Shown here: positions 2,104 to 33,688 of the stretch, one piece after another
How positions within the stretch are numbered: the stretch's first letter is position 1
Layout of the letters: every line of letters begins with the position of its first letter
From: a virus
IMG/VR virus record: IMGVR_UViG_3300023110_001773
Coordinates: 1-64,000 of that record
Strand: one strand, 5' to 3'
DNA: 64,000 nt
Notes under the pieces: model-generated
What the model saw: only the letters and a program-made list of their open reading frames with translations
Database searches by the model: none
Told to the model about the DNA's origin: nothing
Made by a program: the position numbers and the translations under genes

Positions 2104-2288
2104 CTAATTTGTTCTCTCTTTTTGTCACCAAACTTACGGCGATACACGGTTTCGCCCTTATCTGGACTTTCGTATATCCACGGTCTTTTTGCGTACCACT
2201 CTTCATAAGTGATCAGAGGTTTATTAGCACCTTCCATCACGGCAAGATCAGCATGGTACATGGCACGCAAAACTTTGTCAGTATCCAT
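2100..2288 (-). CDS. hypothetical protein (start MDTDKV)
   Basis: IYESPDKGETVYRRKFG motif; start trimmed to avoid a long overlap with the receptor gene. Confidence 0.6.
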   Translation of the reverse strand: MDTDKVLRAMYHADLAVMEGANKPLITYEEWYAKRPWIYESPDKGETVYRRKFGDKKREQIR

Positions 2289-3777
2289 GCTGATACCCAA
2301 CATGAAACTCGACACCCCCAACGGGATACCCGTACTGGATTTCATAGACTTCATCAGTGAGATTGCTCACCGTAGCAAAAAATCCACTGTTCTCATAGGT
2401 AAAGTCAATTGTGGTTGCCCACTGATTGCTATTGATCTGAGTCGTGAAGTCTTTCCACTCAGCGGTCACAGAACCTTTCCACTCCGATACAAATGGCTGA
2501 TCACTGTCAGTGTACCCAGCGAATACCGAAAAGTTCACATCACCAAAAGTGTAATTGTCTTGGAATCGCACACCACTGGTAGAGTAGTCGCCCGTATTCT
2601 GAAACTGATTGTTTTCAAAATTGTAGGTAATACCCTCATCAAAATTATATGCGAATGCCGTTACTGGGCCCAGTGAGATATCAATACCGGCAGATTCTTC
2701 TGGATTTAGATTGTTGTTCGACATAACGTAAGCGTCTCCGTTCTCTTCATATAGTGTTGGTTCCCGATAAGATGATCCTATGGCGACATTAATACCAGTG
2801 AGCAGGGGAACCGAAAACCCAACTCTGGCAACTACATTGTCACCGTCAGTTCTAACAGAAAAACCACCGTACTCAGCATACGCCTCGACCCGTTCTCTGG
2901 TTTGTCCTGCGAATCTTTCTGCGTTGATTGTCGCACCGATCAACACATCATAAAACATCTGTCTAGCATCAGTGTAGAATCGTTGCGACTTACTTTCATA
3001 ACCACTGCCCTCATTGGGGAAGTCAGCATTGTTCCAACTGTAGCCAACTGTTATATTCTCATCATTGTACGATACTGTGCCACGGTTGCCTTCCTGTTTA
3101 CACTCATCAGAAAATAGTGTCATGACAAAATTCTCATCAAAGGTAGGCTGGTAGCACCTATCGTAGTCATAGGAATAGTCAGTATAAACTAAATTGAAAT
3201 TGCCGTACTCTCCACGCACCGTATAATTTTTGTACATGTCGTCTTCGTCATTGTCAGACCTGACCGAATCATTGTTAGCACCAAATGCCGTGAAAGAAAA
3301 ACCCAAGTCACTTGATATGTGCGTCATGGCACTCTTTGATCCGGCACGAATCATAAAACGATTATCAAACGTATCGTTGATAAAAACAGTTCCAGCGAGT
3401 GAACCAGAACCATAGATTGTAGAGTTAGAACCCTGCACCAGCGTGATTCTCTCGCCGCCTGTGGGGATATCGTGAGCAAAGTCATACCAACCCGTACCAG
3501 AATCGTTGACTGGGATTCCGTTGCGATATATCTGCGAGTGAATAGTCTGTTGCCCTCGTTCACGATATCCAGCGAAACCACCATACCCACCTTGAGTGAA
3601 TGATTGACTAGGATCAAGAATCTCAGCGACAGTGAAATCTAAGTTTGGTTTGGGTTCAAATGTCTGGCGAGGTGCCGCCTCCACGACAATCTCATAAAGT
3701 TCTTCGGCATACGCTGCACCAGCAAACCATGCCATGAACAGAAATACCACAAAAACATACCATCTAATTTTAATCAC
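2278..3777 (-). CDS. TonB-dependent outer-membrane receptor (BtuB-like, compact)
   Basis: signal peptide (AAYA|EE), TonB-box-like EIVVEA, plug motifs RG..YRNGIPVND and ERITLVQGSNSTIYGSGSLAGTVFI, C-terminal SNLTDEVY..GVEFHVGYQHGY with terminal aromatic; probable GTG start at 3777. Confidence 0.85.
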   Translation of the reverse strand: MIKIRWYVFVVFLFMAWFAGAAYAEELYEIVVEAAPRQTFEPKPNLDFTVAEILDPSQSFTQGGYGGFAGYRERGQQTIHSQIYRNGIPVNDSGTGWYDFAHDIPTGGERITLVQGSNSTIYGSGSLAGTVFINDTFDNRFMIRAGSKSAMTHISSDLGFSFTAFGANNDSVRSDNDEDDMYKNYTVRGEYGNFNLVYTDYSYDYDRCYQPTFDENFVMTLFSDECKQEGNRGTVSYNDENITVGYSWNNADFPNEGSGYESKSQRFYTDARQMFYDVLIGATINAERFAGQTRERVEAYAEYGGFSVRTDGDNVVARVGFSVPLLTGINVAIGSSYREPTLYEENGDAYVMSNNNLNPEESAGIDISLGPVTAFAYNFDEGITYNFENNQFQNTGDYSTSGVRFQDNYTFGDVNFSVFAGYTDSDQPFVSEWKGSVTAEWKDFTTQINSNQWATTIDFTYENSGFFATVSNLTDEVYEIQYGYPVGGVEFHVGYQHGY

Positions 3778-3890
3778 ATGAACATCCCATATGCTAGACA
3801 CCACAATTCTAACCCAAGTTTATAAAATACCCAAGCACCCATAACGCACAATGCGCCCATACACATTTGACCAGTGACAGTCTTATTCAT
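3774..3890 (-). CDS. 38-aa small membrane protein (not in ORF track)
   Basis: MNKTVTGQMCMGALCVMGAWVFYKLGLELWCLAYGMFM; GGAG RBS; stop overlaps the receptor GTG. Confidence 0.65.
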   Translation of the reverse strand: MNKTVTGQMCMGALCVMGAWVFYKLGLELWCLAYGMFM

Positions 3891-4905
3891 TATTATCTCC
3901 TATCATGCCACGTTTAATCAGTTCCTTTTTAACCAATTTCATCCATGCATTTTGGACATCAGTAGGCGGGTGATACATCAGATTTTCTGCAAAATCACCA
4001 CACTCCCAATATCTAAATTCTTGTAGTCCACCTTGAACAACGCTGTCGTTCTCATAAAAAAACCAAGTGTCCCAATCAATCATATCCATCCAATGTTTAC
4101 AGTCTGGATACATCTTTTCAATTCTTTTGTTTTTGAATTCTGCCTTCATATTTTCTGGCAACGGCGTTGTAGTTTTTTCTGTGTTGTCCCACAGTCTTCT
4201 AGCCAACCAACCCATAGTTGCTTGTCCAGAGATTAAGTTTCTATCGCCGTTGCCATGAATTTCATCTGTTGGTCTAACGTGTACATCGTGAAATATATTC
4301 TGCCAACACATGTTCATCAAAGGTACGCCATAGGATTTGCACAAAGACTGTAGAGTAATTATGGCACGACATGTGTCAACATAACATTGTGCTTTGCTAA
4401 AATTGTTATCGAAATAAGACCTAATGCGTCTATCTAATGACGGTATACCAAAATCCCATATACCATAACCACCCCCAATGATCAACCAATTCGACATCGG
4501 GTGTTTTATTTTCTCATTATTTTCGGTGAGGAAATAATTGGTAAAAGTAGTCTGCTGTTCTTTCCTTAACCCATTGTAGATATCTCTCCAGTCTGGGTCT
4601 TCGTGAGTGAACAAGAATTCTTTTCTAAATGGCGATGACCACATCACTACCACACCAGCAGCATTTTTTCTTCTCTCTGGTTTTGATAGTTCATAACATA
4701 AACGATCACAGATGATCTGATTTCCAGAACCCATCTGTGCAGCATGGATAACAGAATCTCTTCCTAATTCAGATTCTAGTTGTCTGGCCCATGATAAAGT
4801 TTTTTTGTCTGTGTGTGCCGTAAAAGAACATCCACCAGTAATAATATAATTATCTTTTTCCGCCGAAGTATCTGACTGCATGTCCCTTTTCCACCAAGTA
4901 TTCAT
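3883..4905 (-). CDS. SGNH/GDSL-like family protein (GCS...HP)
   Basis: IITGGCSFT, SW, GSGN, VVVMWS, C-terminal YHP. Confidence 0.6.
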   Translation of the reverse strand: MNTWWKRDMQSDTSAEKDNYIITGGCSFTAHTDKKTLSWARQLESELGRDSVIHAAQMGSGNQIICDRLCYELSKPERRKNAAGVVVMWSSPFRKEFLFTHEDPDWRDIYNGLRKEQQTTFTNYFLTENNEKIKHPMSNWLIIGGGYGIWDFGIPSLDRRIRSYFDNNFSKAQCYVDTCRAIITLQSLCKSYGVPLMNMCWQNIFHDVHVRPTDEIHGNGDRNLISGQATMGWLARRLWDNTEKTTTPLPENMKAEFKNKRIEKMYPDCKHWMDMIDWDTWFFYENDSVVQGGLQEFRYWECGDFAENLMYHPPTDVQNAWMKLVKKELIKRGMIGDNNE

Positions 4906-5517: not shown

Positions 5518-6102
5518 TTATCCTTTCAGAATGTCATATAGTTGCTCCCAACTTTTGACAATCGTTGCCGGCCCCTGATAATCCATATTATGGCCGTGTT
5601 CCATTAGGAATGAATTGAATCCAAACTCAGCACCAACATCTGCGTTTACTGGTTTGTCTTCAATCCACGGTGCTCCATAATATTTATGCGACAATCGTTC
5701 AAGGATTTCATCTTTATCAGCACCACAGTCTAGATAATGAAACCCAACAAAGGCATCACCAAATAATTTTCGTAGGTTTTGAGTTCGCAATTCCTGTGCA
5801 TACGGATCACTATGAAGACTAGTCACGGCAACAAATAGGTATCCATGTTGTTCAAACAATTTGCGAATGAACCATTGGGCATCACGCAAAGGTGGCAGAA
5901 AACCAATAGCGGCACTGCTGTTGAATTGGTTGGTAAGTCTCTTCCCCTCTTCTGGGGTAATGTTAAACCTTTCGTTGATTTTGTACATCAACTGGTATCC
6001 CTCCACGGGAACCATTCCATTGTGCCTACACCATCCCATGAATGCGGTCTCCCAATCAAGGCAAACCCCATCACAGTCGGTTAAAATAAATTTGTTTTTC
6101 AA
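5518..6102 (-). CDS. HAD-superfamily 5'(3')-deoxyribonucleotidase-like phosphatase
   Basis: DCDGV motif I, VTS motif II, K..WIEDK motifs III/IV. Confidence 0.8.
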   Translation of the reverse strand: MKNKFILTDCDGVCLDWETAFMGWCRHNGMVPVEGYQLMYKINERFNITPEEGKRLTNQFNSSAAIGFLPPLRDAQWFIRKLFEQHGYLFVAVTSLHSDPYAQELRTQNLRKLFGDAFVGFHYLDCGADKDEILERLSHKYYGAPWIEDKPVNADVGAEFGFNSFLMEHGHNMDYQGPATIVKSWEQLYDILKG

Positions 6103-7628: not shown

Positions 7629-8042
7629 TTAGGATTTCCTCAAATTTACTTTTTCTAGTGATAGTTTGTCTTTATAACTGAGTATGAATGCAGATATTGC
7701 CAACACAAAAATGCCGAGACTTTCGTAAATTATGTTCACTGGTTCGGTTCCCTTCGTGGTCAATACAATCATACGAGTCAATGCGGTAATTGCGATAATG
7801 ATAGGAAGCGTGACTGGTATTCTGTGGTCATTATAGAATGCACCCACCATGCCAAGTATCTCAGCATAAATGAACAACAAGAAAAGATCAGCGAGAGCCA
7901 TTTTGCCTTGTTGACCAAACATGCCAACAATATCATACCCAGCAGCCCACACCGTACCAGCAACAATGAATAGTAGTAAAGCCTTCTCAATGTGGAGAAT
8001 GCCCCTCGACACTCTCTTCTTTACATAATTAGAATCTATCAT
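7629..8042 (-). CDS. psiE: phosphate-starvation-inducible PsiE-family membrane protein
   Basis: 4 TM helices; LADLFLLFIYAEILGMV..RIPVTLPIIIAITALTR. Confidence 0.8.
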   Translation of the reverse strand: MIDSNYVKKRVSRGILHIEKALLLFIVAGTVWAAGYDIVGMFGQQGKMALADLFLLFIYAEILGMVGAFYNDHRIPVTLPIIIAITALTRMIVLTTKGTEPVNIIYESLGIFVLAISAFILSYKDKLSLEKVNLRKS

Positions 8043-9950: not shown

Positions 9951-10190
9951 TTACTTAACAAAATGAATAATATTGTCAATGATTAGTGATCGCCACTGGG
10001 ACTTTTCCACATCGAATACGGTAACGTGGGTATCTTTTTGAGTGCTAGTGCCACTAGTAGCAGGAACAACCGACTCCTGTAGAGTGGCCTTCACAACACG
10101 TTCCGTACCATCCTTCTTTTTGTAGAGAATATTAGCAGTACCGTTGACCAGCACATCAATCACCTCTTGTTTATTCATCGCAAACTCCAT
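9951..10190 (-). CDS. small SH3/WYL-like beta-barrel protein
   Basis: YKKKDGTER..ATL..VFDVEK..WRS. Confidence 0.75.
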   Translation of the reverse strand: MEFAMNKQEVIDVLVNGTANILYKKKDGTERVVKATLQESVVPATSGTSTQKDTHVTVFDVEKSQWRSLIIDNIIHFVK

Positions 10191-11257
10191 AGTTTTTTCT
10201 CCATGATTTCATCATATAGTTTAGTAGCTATTGCCTCGTGGCACTTTTCATCTGGGTGGCCACCAGGCATTTTTCCAACAAACGATGGATGAGTTTTGTT
10301 GAGGAACATATCACCAAAGTCTGTTTGAGACATCTCCGGCATAGACTTGACCGAATTAATCTTATTGTATATTTTATCATATAATTTAGTTTCACGCAAG
10401 AACAAATAGTATTTTTCTTGGATTTTTTTATCCATGCCCCAAAACTCTTCTCCATCACAAAATAGATCGATGATCTGCATATACCTGTTGCCTTCTCTTA
10501 TATACCTAGAGAGTGCCCCACATGTTTCTGATTCTTCTACTACTTTCAATCCATCCAAAACCACGTTCATTAGACGCAAGTTACCTAAAGCATCCCACAT
10601 GTAACAAGGAATTCTTTTAGCACGGAAAAAATAAACGAGCGATTCAACATATCTCAAAGTATCTAAAACTTGATGTATTGGAGAATTGAATTTGTGATTG
10701 CCAATCACTTCTGTTTTCATATTCACAAAATGTCTTTGTTCTATGTTTTCTGAAAACAAACTTTGTATGCTATGTTGATTCCAGTGTGAATACTCCTCTA
10801 TGACTGGATCAAGGTCATCATCGTCTGGACTGTAGACACCACCCTTTGCCCACTCATTGAAATCCCCATCGGTGTGGTGACCCCTGACCCCATCACATTC
10901 TTCACATGGGTATGTTGGTTCCCACAAATTTAAAAATCTTTCATTGATAGGAATTTGAAATCTCTCTGGGCCAGTCAATTGAATAACTGCTATCCCATCG
11001 TATTCAATGTTTTGTGGTTTGTTGAAAAAATCAAGAGTCGTTCTCCAAGTTCTTGGATTTGATCCTGCTCCCCTTGAAATATTTACTACACCAGTGTTTA
11101 ATTTTTGAGACAAAAGAGTTGACCATCTCTTCTCTCTTCTATACTTCGTGTCTACCCACTGATACGGTTCCTTTTTTTCCGTGTCATAATATCGTGTCTC
11201 TTCTCCCAACTCTGCTCCCAGACTAATGGAACATCCATTGACAAATAATTTACTCAT
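10175..11257 (-). CDS. SGNH/GDSL-like family protein
   Basis: LFVNGCSIS, NISRGAGSN, VIQLTGPER, GGHPDEKCH. Confidence 0.6.
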   Translation of the reverse strand: MSKLFVNGCSISLGAELGEETRYYDTEKKEPYQWVDTKYRREKRWSTLLSQKLNTGVVNISRGAGSNPRTWRTTLDFFNKPQNIEYDGIAVIQLTGPERFQIPINERFLNLWEPTYPCEECDGVRGHHTDGDFNEWAKGGVYSPDDDDLDPVIEEYSHWNQHSIQSLFSENIEQRHFVNMKTEVIGNHKFNSPIHQVLDTLRYVESLVYFFRAKRIPCYMWDALGNLRLMNVVLDGLKVVEESETCGALSRYIREGNRYMQIIDLFCDGEEFWGMDKKIQEKYYLFLRETKLYDKIYNKINSVKSMPEMSQTDFGDMFLNKTHPSFVGKMPGGHPDEKCHEAIATKLYDEIMEKKLWSLR

Positions 11258-27695: not shown

Positions 27696-27703
27696 TATTT
27701 ATA
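27696..27703 (-). promoter_or_regulatory. T4-type late promoter
   Basis: TATAAATA. Confidence 0.75.
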
Positions 27704-29309
27704 AAGATAACTTCTTCTGTTTGTACTCTTCTATAGAATCTTTGACCATTTCTCTGGGTGGATTCATCATACTAGGCAGTTCTCTAAATGTTTTGGTCAA
27801 CATATCATTCTTTGTAAATCCAACTCCCTGCCAATTTGACTGATTAAAGATAGGTACACCACGATCCCAGTATCTTTCGTGTCCAAATATTTCTTCCTGC
27901 ACGCCAATGAATGCTTCAATATAGTCAAAGTGTTCGTTTTTCCAGAGGTAACTACCCATTTGAAACTGTGGTGAGTTTACATCTGGAACCATTTTCTTAA
28001 TTCTCCACTTAAAATAGTCAGCAATATTTGGGTTGTTGTAAATATGATCCAGTCTATCCCCAACTGGTTTAATTTCTATTGGTTGCAAGGTTGTATATCC
28101 ATATTTATCCATATTGTTGGACATATCATTGGGTCTCGAAAACCCGCTATCCCTAATGATGTGTAGAGGAAACATTGATACTGCCTCACCATACCAATTT
28201 TCGTCAATCCATTTGAATGTTTTGTCCAGTGTTTCTCTGGTTTCGTGAGGTAGTCCCCAAATAAAACTCATTTCGCCACGATAAAAATCATTGTGTTTGA
28301 GGAAATATTTCTTTGCTTCTAATATACCAGGCAGGATTTTTTCTGGGTCTCCCCCTTTACCAATTGCTTTAGCAGATGCATGATTCGTAGATTCGATGCC
28401 ATACAAGTGACTGTTAAATCTCATCCTTGCCAGTTCTTCCAGATCACCTTCCCTCATGGTCATTAGATCAGCACGAACATATCCAGTGAAATTTGGTTTG
28501 AAGTCCAATGATTGAACAACATCACCGTACTTTCTTATTTTTTCAACATAATCATTGAATGTGTCATCTGTAATAATGTATTCTGTAAGACCCCACTTGT
28601 CGTAATTTTCTTTGATGTTTGTTTCAAAGTCTTCTTTGCTACGAGTGTAGTCTTCTTTAACCCCTAGAATCGGGAAGTTGCAATAAGAACACTTGAAACG
28701 GCAACCACGAGATGTCTCCATAGAAACAACTTCATAAGGTTTGATAAAATCTCTTTCCTCGTATTTGATGGAGAGTATTGGCCATGGCCATGCGTTGTAT
28801 TCTTTTGTTCTCCAACAATCAACATGTTTCACAACTGGCATATGTGGAAACATCTGAAGATCGACACACTTGGGGTTTCCTTCTAATACTGCTTTGATAC
28901 CAAGTTCTCCGTATCCAGAGACGTAGTAATCTATGTTTGGTATCTGTACAATAGACCACACATCTTGACTACCAGCGCATGTGGTGACATGTGGATAAGT
29001 TTCTTTGATGTGTTTGAACAATTCAAGAACTACTGGGGCGCTAAGAAAAAAGATTCCGCCAATACCAACAAGTCTGGTATCTGGCCCAATCCTACTTTTA
29101 CAAAGTTCTTTTAGTTCTTCAATTGTCCAAGAAAAGATAAAATCTACCACCTCAACATCAAGATCAAACTCATCTCTTATGTAGGTAGCAATTCTATATG
29201 TTCCAGAAGTTCTACTTCTGGTTTCATACACTGGTTCATCACCAAACTCTTTTACTGTATTTGCATATCCCGCCATTCCAGTAAAAAGTAACACATCAAC
29301 TTTTGACAT
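27699..29309 (-). CDS. radical SAM enzyme with B12-binding-like N-terminal domain
   Basis: ETSRGCRFKCSYC, DDTFN, GIES, GLPHET; N-terminal Rossmann-like segment ending GYGE. Confidence 0.85.
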   Translation of the reverse strand: MSKVDVLLFTGMAGYANTVKEFGDEPVYETRSRTSGTYRIATYIRDEFDLDVEVVDFIFSWTIEELKELCKSRIGPDTRLVGIGGIFFLSAPVVLELFKHIKETYPHVTTCAGSQDVWSIVQIPNIDYYVSGYGELGIKAVLEGNPKCVDLQMFPHMPVVKHVDCWRTKEYNAWPWPILSIKYEERDFIKPYEVVSMETSRGCRFKCSYCNFPILGVKEDYTRSKEDFETNIKENYDKWGLTEYIITDDTFNDYVEKIRKYGDVVQSLDFKPNFTGYVRADLMTMREGDLEELARMRFNSHLYGIESTNHASAKAIGKGGDPEKILPGILEAKKYFLKHNDFYRGEMSFIWGLPHETRETLDKTFKWIDENWYGEAVSMFPLHIIRDSGFSRPNDMSNNMDKYGYTTLQPIEIKPVGDRLDHIYNNPNIADYFKWRIKKMVPDVNSPQFQMGSYLWKNEHFDYIEAFIGVQEEIFGHERYWDRGVPIFNQSNWQGVGFTKNDMLTKTFRELPSMMNPPREMVKDSIEEYKQKKLSL

Positions 29310-29589: not shown

Positions 29590-30546
29590 TCAAGCAAAGT
29601 TAAGGGTATTCATAGACGGGCCTATCAAACCAATAATATCATCCGCCCAGATTTTATGAGTTTCAGCGCCTGGGTGTATCAAATCTCTTGCCATACTTAT
29701 ACCATCAAAAGAATCATTTCCTCTAGCCAGCTGCCATTCATAGTGGCCCCATGCTCTATACTCTTTACGAAATTCATGTGCAGAATCAACAATAAAAACT
29801 GGAATTTTCATTTCTTTTGCTATTGTTTGAAGCATAACAATGTTTTTTGATGTTTGGACAAGGTTGTTCATATCGTTTAAGATAGAACAATATTCCATAC
29901 TGTACATTTCTTCTTTCGTTGGGTTTTTCTTTATTGTATTTGCAGAACAAGACCTTATATTAAAACCAGAAAAAAAATTCCATCGTCTAGGAGGGGGATT
30001 CAACACAACAATTGCTTTTGGATTTTTTACATCGGTTCTTAACATAAACATAGCATGTAAAACTGCTAAATCCAATCCAGTGCCAGGAACACCAAAGTTG
30101 AAATCCGCACAATCAAAGTATTTAGATACTATGTGTGAGAAAGTTTTTTCTTTTGGCAATCCGACACCAAAAGTGTGACTGCATCCATAAAACACAATCC
30201 CCTCTTTATCATAACTATCATCAATTCTAAACCCATCCGAGTTTAAATTATAATTGATTGCTACTGGAACACCTTTCTCGGTTATCCACCCAAAGTGTTC
30301 CAAACACTTTAACCTTACTTTATCTTTTTTGTTTTTTTTAAATGCGTCTAAATTATCAGTTGACATCCAGTGAACAAGATGATCTCTGTTTTCTTGATAT
30401 TCTGTTTCAGCAAACTGTAAATTGACACCACCAATAGACCTTCTTAGGTTCACCAGTTCTTCTTGCGGTAGACATATACTATGTTCCCACCCGAGGCCTC
30501 GTCCCAAATAAGTTCTTACATATTCTAAAACTTTATCAACTTTCAT
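29590..30546 (-). CDS. SGNH/GDSL-like family protein
   Basis: NSDGFR, YGCSHTFGVG, NFGVPG, ARDLIHPG. Confidence 0.6.
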   Translation of the reverse strand: MKVDKVLEYVRTYLGRGLGWEHSICLPQEELVNLRRSIGGVNLQFAETEYQENRDHLVHWMSTDNLDAFKKNKKDKVRLKCLEHFGWITEKGVPVAINYNLNSDGFRIDDSYDKEGIVFYGCSHTFGVGLPKEKTFSHIVSKYFDCADFNFGVPGTGLDLAVLHAMFMLRTDVKNPKAIVVLNPPPRRWNFFSGFNIRSCSANTIKKNPTKEEMYSMEYCSILNDMNNLVQTSKNIVMLQTIAKEMKIPVFIVDSAHEFRKEYRAWGHYEWQLARGNDSFDGISMARDLIHPGAETHKIWADDIIGLIGPSMNTLNFA

Positions 30547-31081: not shown

Positions 31082-31365
31082 TAGCAGTTCCACCTTCTTC
31101 TTGCGGCCTTACCTCTTTCGCCTGTCCAACTACGAGATCGAGCGCAGAATGATTTGCGTCTCTTTGCGTCTTTGCTACCAGGCTTTAGTTTACTGGGCGG
31201 AGTAGTAACTGCGGTTTGCAATTTAGAGCCTGGGTTTTGGCGGCGATACTTTTCGACACCTTTTTTGGTTAAGCCAGCACCTTTGCTAACAGGAAGTTTA
31301 TGACCACCCTTGACGGTCATACCCTTCATACCTTCTTCGCCCAAAAATTCTAGGAAAGTTTTCAT
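31081..31365 (-). CDS. small basic protein with capsid-targeting-like N-terminus
   Basis: MKTFLEFLGEE; KRRKSFCARS..ARRRWNC. Confidence 0.75.
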   Translation of the reverse strand: MKTFLEFLGEEGMKGMTVKGGHKLPVSKGAGLTKKGVEKYRRQNPGSKLQTAVTTPPSKLKPGSKDAKRRKSFCARSRSWTGERGKAARRRWNC

Positions 31366-33674
31366 TTCTTTTTCACCTTAAATTTCTTAGCCTTTTGTGC
31401 CGAAGCAGAAGACTTTGCGGATGAAGCTTTATACTTCTTCGCCTTCTGTGGTTTTTTGTTGGTAGATGTAAGTCGTTTCAATTCATTCTTTCTAATGATT
31501 GGAACCATTCTCTGTGCAAGTCTAGAGATCAGTCCTGTAAATCGTTTTGACATAGCCTCAATTCTAGCCTTTTCGGCAGGAGGCATGGAAGACATGTCTC
31601 TCCCTCTAGCAAGTCTGGACTTAATCATGTTTCTTGCACCACGAGTTGCCCTTCTCTTAACCCTAGCAGGATCGGCGGCTCTCCTAGATGCTCTCATTCT
31701 AGCAACTTTGAGTTTCTGTCTGTTTCTTCTAGCGTTAAAACGCCTCTTCATTCTACCTTGAATAGACAGGGCTTCAAGAATGTCCACGTTGTCGTGAATA
31801 TCTGATTCTTCATCGTCATCTTCTTCTGCTGAATCAAAGTCTTCTAATTCTTCTGAATCGTACATACCCAAACCTATCATCTCATCAAAATCCATATTGT
31901 CAATTTGAACTTCCATGTCGGCAATATCTTCCGATGTGAAGATAGAATCAACATCCATTTCCAAAACTTCCATCTCTTCTTCACATCCACAGTGTTCTTT
32001 TATTTTTAGTTTATCAAGAACCATCTGTCTAGCTTTTTGGCCAAGGTCTTTGAAGTGATATAGGTTTTCACTATCCTTTGTGTGTTTCTTACCAGTCATA
32101 ACTTGTCCATCGTGGGCGTGTTGATCACCCTTCCATTCAGTACCATCTTTCTTATAGTGACCATCGGTTTTCCACGAATGATTCTCACCTTCTTCGATCT
32201 TTGTTTTGTAGTGATATTTGTTGGTGGTTTGATTTTTCTTGGTAGTAGAGCCTGGTTCGCCTGGAGTCAAGGCCTTGAAGTATTGTGTACCTTCTGGTCT
32301 TCCCCACTCGTATCGACTAATCTGTTTGTCTTCCTTCTGATACATTTTTGCCAGAGTTCTAGCATCAACCTTGTCGGAAATCGTTCTTGCTACTTGTGCA
32401 GCATAGTATTCAATACCGTGTTTGAGTTTGCCGCCACCTTCTCTCTTCTTTCTATCGATAATAGGTTTCAGAGTTTTGAGTGCGGTGTTATAGTGAACTC
32501 TATGAACAGTTTTGGCAAGTGGGTCTTTCATCCACTGAAATGTTTCTTTTTGAGTTTTTGAGGAATCAACTGCTTTTGCAGAAGTATCCTTCATTTTCTT
32601 GATCATATCCGTATAAAACTTTTGACGGGCTTCCAAATCTATACCGTGGTGAGTTTTGAGTCGTCTATTGAGACGTTCTGCTGCAGAAAGTTTTGCTGCC
32701 TCTTTGACATCCGTCTTGACCATGATGGGTTTACCACCCTTGCCCTTTCTATCGGCAACGGGGTCTTTTCTTCTCTTGCGTCTGGCAGAAGTCGCCCTAT
32801 CGTCCTTGTCCATACTGTGTGCCTTTTGTCTCGGCATACACTTGGGTTTACCTTCGCCAGGCTCTCTTGCACATTGACCTTTGATTTCTCCATCCGTACC
32901 TACACGAACCCAATCACCTTTGGGATGATCTTTACTAAACCAATTACGGAGGTCTTCTCTTATGCCCCTCTGTTGTTTTTGGTCACGAATCCATCGTTGA
33001 GCGATATAATTATGGGAAGTTTTTACCCACCGACCAACCTTGCGATAGGCGTGCATAATTCCACTTTGATAGTCTGAACCCTCTGAGTTATCAATAATAA
33101 CAAAATCGTTTCCAAACAAGTTCTGAAACTTACCAATATTCTTTTGTGTTTCTTTCCACATGAAACCCAGTGAAACATTGTCAATAGTTCTGGCTCGATT
33201 TGCATTTCTTTTTCTAGCAGTCTCTCTGTCAGCATTGACAAAAATCATCATTGTCTGGTAACCTAGAGTCTCAAGTGCGTTTTTCTGTTTTTCTATCTTA
33301 GCGTAATCTTTACCAGTACCGTCAATGACAAGACCAAGACGCCCTTCAATATATTGGTCTTGCCTTTTATTAGTTATGTATTTTGCTCGGTCACGCATCG
33401 CCTGACCTTTTGGGCTAGAGATGAAGTCAGTAATTGCTTTTTTCGCCGGGTCTCTTCTAGAAGAGTATGATTGCATAACTCCAGCTTTCTTTAATGCATT
33501 CTCAAACGCATCATCAGAGTTGATAGTCTTTAACCCAAAAGTAGACAGTGCAGTCTGTCCAACGACAAATGACTTACCGCTACCAGGCCCGCCGGCTAAG
33601 AAAACCGCTTTGAAGATGGCAGGGTCATTGACACCTTCTTCTAGAGGTAGAAAATCTTTGAAAGTCTTATCCAT
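31362..33674 (-). CDS. P-loop kinase (zeta-toxin/Pnk-like) fused to multiple basic modules; putative internal head protein
   Basis: MDKTFKDFLPLEE; AGGPGSGKS; LVIDGTG; R..R lid; late promoter. Confidence 0.75.
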   Translation of the reverse strand: MDKTFKDFLPLEEGVNDPAIFKAVFLAGGPGSGKSFVVGQTALSTFGLKTINSDDAFENALKKAGVMQSYSSRRDPAKKAITDFISSPKGQAMRDRAKYITNKRQDQYIEGRLGLVIDGTGKDYAKIEKQKNALETLGYQTMMIFVNADRETARKRNANRARTIDNVSLGFMWKETQKNIGKFQNLFGNDFVIIDNSEGSDYQSGIMHAYRKVGRWVKTSHNYIAQRWIRDQKQQRGIREDLRNWFSKDHPKGDWVRVGTDGEIKGQCAREPGEGKPKCMPRQKAHSMDKDDRATSARRKRRKDPVADRKGKGGKPIMVKTDVKEAAKLSAAERLNRRLKTHHGIDLEARQKFYTDMIKKMKDTSAKAVDSSKTQKETFQWMKDPLAKTVHRVHYNTALKTLKPIIDRKKREGGGKLKHGIEYYAAQVARTISDKVDARTLAKMYQKEDKQISRYEWGRPEGTQYFKALTPGEPGSTTKKNQTTNKYHYKTKIEEGENHSWKTDGHYKKDGTEWKGDQHAHDGQVMTGKKHTKDSENLYHFKDLGQKARQMVLDKLKIKEHCGCEEEMEVLEMDVDSIFTSEDIADMEVQIDNMDFDEMIGLGMYDSEELEDFDSAEEDDDEESDIHDNVDILEALSIQGRMKRRFNARRNRQKLKVARMRASRRAADPARVKRRATRGARNMIKSRLARGRDMSSMPPAEKARIEAMSKRFTGLISRLAQRMVPIIRKNELKRLTSTNKKPQKAKKYKASSAKSSASAQKAKKFKVKKK

Positions 33675-33680
33675 AAGGAC

Positions 33681-33688
33681 TATTTATA
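33681..33688 (-). promoter_or_regulatory. T4-type late promoter
   Basis: TATAAATA 6 nt before ATG. Confidence 0.75.

Follow-up and report, generated by a model that had tools for sequence, protein, structure and literature searches.

A phage-borne miniature relative of the vitamin B12 receptor BtuB, with corrinoids as a candidate cargo, and a conserved microprotein often encoded beside such receptors

The window analyzed here, the first 64 kb (64,000 nucleotides) of the 165,637-bp IMG/VR virus record IMGVR_UViG_3300023110_001773, carries on its minus strand a gene (2278-3777, stop codon included) for a 499-amino-acid miniature BtuB-like TonB-dependent receptor. The source of this gene is an uncultured salt-marsh T4-like phage, and the record is rated as complete by CheckV. 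Our data indicated, with a probability of about 0.5, that the protein is a working miniaturized TonB-dependent importer of the BtuB type, made in the infected cell and most likely carrying a corrinoid. Its relatives form a family that was virus-only in the collections searched. A hydrophobic 38-amino-acid microprotein, encoded immediately upstream (3774-3890, minus strand), proved to be a separate real gene whose relatives frequently adjoin BtuB-like receptors in other phages.

The receptor has the parts expected of a TonB-dependent transporter. The preliminary description of this DNA had read it as an intact protein of about 499 residues with a signal peptide, TonB box, plug and C-terminal aromatic residue, and this was borne out by the open reading frame, the Pfam match PF07715 and a structural model. 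The signal peptide (residues 1-24; 3706-3777), identified by inspection of the sequence, comprises an n-region with K3 and R5, a hydrophobic core and AYA at residues 22-24, followed by EE; N-termini of the same kind were present in 81 listed relatives. The TonB box (residues 28-34, YEIVVEA; 3676-3696) aligned with D6-A12 of BtuB (DTLVVTA), and its consensus within the family is (I/L)EE(I/V)VV(V/T)G, with V32 occurring in 55 of 56 members. The plug, or hatch, domain (residues 52-130; 3388-3624) matched Pfam Plug PF07715 at 34.8 bits against a cut-off of 23.9, while the Pfam barrel family PF00593, matched by some relatives, gave no match in the 499-residue protein. The β-barrel (residues 140-499; 2281-3360) ends in FHVGYQHGY, with the terminal aromatic residue of a β-signal for the β-barrel assembly machinery (BAM). 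Within the barrel, the pair Cys208/Cys226 is invariant in the family. Gene callers placed the start differently on identical DNA, giving 485 to 508 residues; a GTG at 3804 would yield a form of 508 residues, and the 499-residue form, starting at the GTG at 3777-3775, is the one with a canonical signal peptide.

An AlphaFold2 model of the receptor, built on 56 relatives, reached a mean predicted local distance difference test (pLDDT) score of 87.1 and a predicted template modeling (pTM) score of 0.85. The top Foldseek match of this model was E. coli BtuB, and superposition with VIA-align on BtuB (2gsk_A) gave a Z score of 35.6 and a root mean square deviation of 2.2 Å over 462 of the 475 mature residues, spanning residues 25-499 of the model and 14-594 of BtuB. 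Lower tiers were occupied by Bacteroides BtuB (Z of about 31), heme receptors (about 29) and siderophore receptors (27-28). Our own parse of the DSSP elements counted 22 strands, plus short hairpins in loops L3, L8 and L11. Since nearly all mature residues superpose on the 22-strand BtuB at 2.2 Å, the modeled receptor keeps all 22 strands, and its small size comes from trimming of the loops, of the strands and of the N-terminal end of the plug. Of the two ways in which the preliminary description had accounted for the small size, very short loops or fewer strands, the trimmed loops agree with the superposed model and the fewer strands do not. Among well-studied TonB-dependent transporters, BtuB (594 mature residues) is to our knowledge the smallest. 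A family of roughly 440-500 residues that keeps the plug, the TonB box and, by the model, all 22 strands would be a natural minimal scaffold for studies of how the gate binds and passes its cargo, as well as a compact target for structural work.

Kinship with BtuB was also evident from profile comparisons. The family profile matched E. coli BtuB at an E value of 1e-24, whereas any solved receptor other than BtuB was matched at 1e-5 or worse. The B12-receptor model TIGR01779 (TonB-B12) was the commonest NCBIfam family, matched by 49 of the 56 family members (best member, E of 1e-22). All NCBIfam matches of family members lay far below the equivalog cut-offs, and the family is therefore a BtuB-related clade, not a BtuB equivalog.

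To locate the differences, the miniature receptor was compared loop by loop with E. coli BtuB (2GSK, 1NQE-1NQH; TIGR01779/PRK10641) in a sequence alignment (locus L091) that, at about 17% identity, is approximate, with loop limits and the list of cobalamin and Ca2+ contacts taken from PMC7360065. Both proteins have a signal peptide, TonB box, plug and 22-strand barrel, whereas the miniature receptor, with 475 mature residues against 594, is about 119 residues shorter. The alignment locates part of this difference: a stretch of 14 residues that follows the TonB box in BtuB is missing, several strand ends are shorter, and loops L10 (1 residue against 18 in BtuB), L5 (6 against 11), L9 (9 against 13), L3 (11 against 15) and L2 (17 against 21) are reduced, whereas L4, L7, L8 and L11 have the same lengths in both proteins. 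The Cys208/Cys226 pair is absent from BtuB. In BtuB, regions of the plug and of loops L2-L5, L8 and L11 bind Ca2+ and cobalamin (PMC7360065). In the same approximate alignment, some of the contact positions were kept, namely D99/D95 (miniature receptor/BtuB), E178/D179, Y182/Y183, Y209/Y229, Y385/Y446 and Y484/Y579, and many others differ.

The 38 invariant positions of the family mapped to the plug and to loops L2, L3, L7, L8 and L11. They include the plug apex GWYDF (96-100), which lies opposite residues 92-96 of BtuB; N176, E178, D180 and N184 in L2, with E178 opposite D179 of BtuB; Y201, Y203, D206 and C208 at the start of L3; and Y484 in L11, opposite Y579 of BtuB. As judged from sequence conservation, this pattern on the outer face argues for a ligand site more than for a protein that does no more than present a TonB box.

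A word-indexed search recovered at least 98 relatives of 436-677 residues (excluding fragments of 279 and 363 residues), nearly all of which carried only a Plug annotation. In an exhaustive phmmer search, 21 clusters scored below 1e-30, followed by a drop to ordinary receptors of 600-750 residues at about 1e-8; these ordinary receptors and the cellular matches aligned mainly over the plug and over only short stretches of the barrel. Family motifs confirmed 291 IMG/VR contigs as carriers, and in 185,579 species genomes the same motifs gave 110 matches, none of which was a relative. The family is thus virus-only in the collections searched. The first three contexts of relatives that were inspected were all phage-like, and CheckV completeness values suggest two types of carrier, phages of about 170-185 kb and of about 360 kb. 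The family is under purifying selection: the ratio of nonsynonymous to synonymous substitution rates (dN/dS) was 0.09 for the window receptor against its orthologue in L002 and 0.23 for L009 against L011, with synonymous sites saturated in deeper pairs. A pseudogene-like dN/dS, which the preliminary description had named as a sign against a working receptor, was not seen. This distribution, with 291 viral contigs and none of the cellular genomes searched, suggests an outer-membrane uptake gate that marine and estuarine phages have maintained as their own over a long time.

A phage-only family of miniature BtuB-like receptors was not described in the literature searched. The marine megaphage Mar_Mega_1 carries a gene for a SusC-like TonB-dependent receptor, which, like the window receptor, is a TonB-dependent auxiliary gene of an uncultured marine phage; that gene is of the SusC type, associated with carbohydrate uptake, whereas no miniaturization, BtuB kinship or phage-only family is described there (PMC9723777). 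Two neighborhoods of other family members were also recorded. On a 141-kb phage contig (L003:14405-16555), a 524-residue member lies 3 kb upstream of genes for an S-adenosylmethionine (SAM) synthetase, a phosphoribosyltransferase and a nucleosidase-like protein, a set that would suit the recycling of radical SAM by-products. In the clade of 462-residue receptors (L006:9778-11389), a gene for a 73-residue DUF2061 membrane protein lies directly upstream of the receptor gene, with a gap of 1 nucleotide.

In the mechanism that we favor, the receptor would be made early in infection, exported by the Sec pathway through its signal peptide and inserted by BAM into the host outer membrane, where host TonB-ExbBD would open it through the conserved TonB box; a homologue search of the phage itself returned no TonB_C or ExbB homologues. 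Its most likely cargo, a corrinoid (vitamin B12 or a relative), would feed two radical SAM enzymes of the B12-binding type encoded by the phage. Should the cargo be B12, these phages would be direct competitors for a vitamin that is among the scarcest in the sea. The first of the two enzymes (27699-29309) had been called a B12-type radical SAM protein from the sequence alone, and this assignment held: its best NCBIfam matches were B12-binding radical SAM families, and across most of its length it shows homology to many proteins with both PF02310 and PF04055. The second (122559-124064 of the record; G000:C1:122559-124064, L089:388-1893) showed a weak PF02310 match. The gene for the gp32 single-strand-binding protein stands directly beside this second gene. 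In another lineage (L013:1534-4560 and L014), a family member of 461-463 residues is followed, after a gap of 70 nucleotides, by a homologue of the 27699-29309 enzyme (E of 1e-151), and this homologue matches a B12-binding domain.

The link between the receptor and the B12 enzymes is only partial, and several observations weigh against a corrinoid importer serving them. The receptor itself scored 28 bits against the BtuB equivalog model TIGR01779, for which the cut-off is 599.7. Several of the loops that bind B12 in BtuB are shortened, L10 being nearly gone and L5, L9, L3 and L2 trimmed, and many of the cobalamin-contact residues are replaced. Models of heme, hemoglobin or transferrin receptors were matched by 25 of the 56 family members. 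The 27699-29309 enzyme has no Pfam B12-binding match of its own, and the phage ribonucleotide reductase is of class I (NrdAB), which does not depend on B12. No cobalamin riboswitch was found, Rfam detecting just a tRNA in the window; the overlapping genes leave no leader upstream of the receptor. The presence of a TonB system in the host is an assumption of the mechanism. The receptor was present in 1 of 12 long viral records carrying the 27699-29309 enzyme and in none of the four complete phage genomes with it, among them the closest complete relative found. Since complete genomes have the enzyme without the receptor, the enzyme does not depend on the receptor. Nine receptor-bearing viral records in which the enzyme was not found carry no weight here, because their completeness is only 14-27%. 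In that closest complete relative (165,127 bp, with terminal repeats), synteny holds up to the orthologue of the gene at 5518-6102 and then breaks before the receptor region; this break, together with the patchy occurrence of the receptor among relatives, places the gene in a variable accessory region. The earlier proposal that the receptor imports cobalamin or iron for phage enzymes is therefore upheld in part, by the BtuB kinship and the B12-binding radical SAM proteins, and weakened by the class I reductase and by the enzyme occurring without the receptor in all four complete genomes.

The same features bear on other explanations. A working TonB-dependent importer with a different cargo, such as heme or another iron source for the Fe-S radical SAM enzymes, the di-iron ribonucleotide reductase and the 2-oxoglutarate enzymes, or a small metabolite, is a possible but doubtful account; it would fit the matches to heme, hemoglobin and transferrin receptor models, the position of heme receptors in the next structural tier (Z of about 29), the many replaced cobalamin contacts, the trimmed loops, and a phage rich in iron enzymes (class I ribonucleotide reductase, radical SAM). 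However, profile (1e-24 against 1e-5), NCBIfam and structural comparisons all clearly ranked BtuB first, and in one lineage the receptor gene is followed directly by a gene for a B12-binding radical SAM enzyme. We consider it rather unlikely that the protein serves competition among phages, an abundant TonB-box protein titrating TonB, or replacing or occluding a receptor, and so blocking TonB-dependent phages and bacteriocins, with trimmed loops that deny them a grip. There are established precedents in outer-membrane exclusion proteins of phages such as Cor and Llp, no short motif of the family is conserved more uniformly than the TonB box, and both the trimmed loops and a patchy accessory gene would be in keeping with such a role. 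Titration of TonB alone, however, would not need the residues that are also invariant in the plug and in the outward loops L2, L3, L7, L8 and L11, and a whole 22-strand barrel would be a costly decoy.

It is improbable that the receptor and the microprotein act jointly on the envelope, for example in remodeling or in the timing of lysis, the barrel then being a gated pore in the outer membrane instead of a nutrient importer. Such an action could be read from the microprotein lying next to BtuB-like receptors of two clades, on either side of the receptor gene, and from the SGNH-hydrolase-like gene that accompanies the module in the clade of the window, but conservation of the plug and the TonB box is that of a true transporter, genes for a holin, endolysin or spanin were not identified beside the receptor, and the microprotein is also found without any receptor. 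That the receptor is a decaying or non-functional captured host gene is hardly credible. The protein is shorter than any characterized TonB-dependent transporter known to us, and its small size and the missing Pfam barrel match might hint at decay; the reading frame, however, is unbroken on 291 viral contigs, the model is confident over the full length, the species genomes yielded no cellular counterpart, and the selection data (dN/dS of 0.09-0.23) already contradict such a reading.

The receptor gene is the third of four overlapping genes on the minus strand. The first encodes a 340-residue SGNH-hydrolase-like/DUF6071-like phage protein (3883-4905), and its stop overlaps the start of the microprotein gene by 8 nucleotides. 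The microprotein ATG is preceded at 9 nucleotides by a GGAG Shine-Dalgarno sequence, and its TGA stop (3776-3774) overlaps the GTG start of the receptor. A 62-residue gene (2100-2288) begins with an ATG 11 nucleotides inside the receptor gene end, an arrangement also present in L002 and L176. Since their successive starts and stops overlap, the four genes form a translationally coupled chain. The reality of the 38-residue peptide and its translational coupling, as put forward in the preliminary description, were confirmed by the stop/start overlap and by a codon-position pattern in its most conserved part.

This part is a near-invariant C-terminal motif (residues 23-35, YKLGLELWCLAYG; 3786-3824, minus strand), the window microprotein ending in YKLGLELWCLAYGMFM. 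A profile search recovered 38 clusters of proteins of 35-64 residues at E values of 0.01 or less, which have a variable hydrophobic N-terminal half and the near-invariant Y(K/R)xGLELWCxAYG followed by 2-3 residues. As delimited here, members of the family have 35-53 residues. Among 21 distinct DNA versions of the 13-codon motif, the mean number of bases per site was 2.8 at third, 1.5 at first and 1.15 at second codon positions. Because the variation sits mostly at third positions, the microprotein must be translated and strongly constrained, and the open reading frame is a separate real gene for a predicted membrane microprotein. It is among the most sharply conserved small phage genes that we have met. 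The GLELWC motif and the microprotein were not described in the literature searched, and a protein atlas gave no usable lead for it; both the family and its association with two clades of receptors are new in this analysis.

The neighborhoods of the microprotein varied. In L002 and L176, gene calling placed its gene ahead of the orthologous receptor, and it is present in L009-L011, where the gene upstream of it is a different one of 166 residues. It also accompanies a second clade of phage receptors, of about 577-600 residues (L183, L186 and L199 among others), which are BtuB-like and adjoin the same microprotein family; they are nearly full-size, 24% identical to the window receptor and 40% identical to each other. 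Those of 577 residues reached 149-168 bits against TIGR01779 and matched E. coli BtuB over the full length at an E value of 1e-29. The microprotein usually lies downstream of these larger receptors, whereas it lies upstream of the window receptor: it was found directly downstream of receptors of 577-606 residues in L183-185 and eight IMG/VR loci, and upstream of a 577-residue receptor, with an overlap of 31 nucleotides, in L186/L187. In the former of these two loci (L186:2356-5466), the order is microprotein, 577-residue receptor, Cupin_2 protein and then a radical SAM protein of a family other than that of the window enzyme. In an IMG/VR motif scan, a receptor directly adjoined the microprotein at 9 of 15 loci. 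No nearby receptor was present in L177-182, L188-191 and six IMG/VR loci; a complete 352,754-bp phage has the microprotein and no detectable receptor; and the GLELWC motif was not found within 6 kb of about 70 other miniature-receptor loci. The microprotein thus frequently neighbors phage receptors of the BtuB-like kind, from two clades and in either gene order, without being an obligate partner. Its repeated position beside receptors in either order suggests a functional link, while the idea of a dedicated receptor partner fails on its occurrence in phages without a receptor, including the complete 353-kb genome.

In L177, the microprotein follows an orthologue (55% identity) of the 340-residue SGNH-like gene of the window. 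Abundant marine T4-like phages (L177:2702-4117, also L178-L180) have an SNase gene, an SGNH-like gene of 317 residues and the GLELWC microprotein, with no receptor gene, and the microprotein cluster of this type is listed in 95 index blocks, the longest contigs reaching 275 kb. In the window, this trio of SNase, SGNH-like and microprotein genes recurs, with the receptor inserted after it. On a short contig (L191:946-4095), the microprotein is accompanied by an ArsC-like gene, and a Porin_4 outer-membrane porin gene lies 2.6 kb away.

What the microprotein does can be framed only tentatively. A leader, ribosome-arrest or metal-sensing peptide of the CruR (DUF2946) kind was considered and appears unlikely, because there is no R(A/G)PP arrest motif, the position relative to the receptor varies or the receptor is absent, and the C-terminus is conserved at the protein level. 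Inspection showed no conserved lipobox or AxA site, against a lipoprotein or a cleavable signal, and kinship with the DUF2061 protein of L006 was rejected at an hhalign probability of 0.8%. A predicted complex of receptor residues 25-499 with the 38-residue peptide scored 0.00, in a prediction made without control runs that carries no weight for or against an interaction. By analogy, one could imagine microprotein and receptor as a phage-specific two-part uptake module, in which the microprotein at the inner membrane couples the receptor to the Ton/Tol motor of the host or hands on the corrinoid; we regard this as speculative and unlikely. The hydrophobic stretch of the microprotein contains an invariant Cys, a Trp and a Lys/Glu pair, and BtuM ligates cobalt through a Cys. 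If such a module were true, the phages would carry their own minimal means of import, which would function even in hosts poor in B12 uptake. A motif of thirteen nearly invariant residues, shared by phages with receptors of only 24% identity, points to a conserved host target.

The record encodes a T4-type set of replication genes, with a family B polymerase, a DnaB-type helicase, RNase H, an SbcC-like ATPase and the class I ribonucleotide reductase. The polymerase is at most 48% identical to cyanomyophage polymerases. The phage sequence recurs in salt-marsh and marine metagenomes, and neither the first 8 kb of the window (megablast) nor the receptor (tblastn) had a match among 50,697 GenBank phage records; in PHROGs, neither the receptor nor the peptide nor the genes around them matched a family. 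The receptor gene belongs to an unbroken run of minus-strand genes, for which the nearest strong candidate start is a sigma-70-type promoter-like site at 6828-6800 (minus strand; TTGACT, 17 nucleotides, TATAAT), identified by consensus match at 11 of 12 positions. No T4-type late-promoter box (TATAAATA) lies nearer to the receptor than 25537. Contigs of at least 99% identity from four salt-marsh RNA libraries partly cover the receptor gene, which speaks only weakly for transcription because DNA carry-over is possible. The segment 6628-7000 was uncovered by contigs in all four runs, a coverage that, being shallow and from contigs only, does not suffice to call a transcript start.

Other genes of the window drew attention in their own right. 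A 770-residue protein (31362-33674) with N-terminal matches to Zeta-toxin and AAA_33 kinase-type families is encoded behind a TATAAATA box at 33681. A homologue of PsiE, a phosphate-starvation-inducible protein, is encoded at 7629-8042 (see L090), and a copy with 77% identity occurs on a 14-kb contig binned into a gammaproteobacterial metagenome-assembled genome; the neighboring genes of this copy look phage-like, and it is therefore at most a weak lead to the host. SGNH-hydrolase/DUF6071-type proteins are encoded at three places (3883-4905, 10175-11257 and 29590-30546), the latter two recognized by weak Pfam matches only, and the group is virus-only according to the protein atlas.

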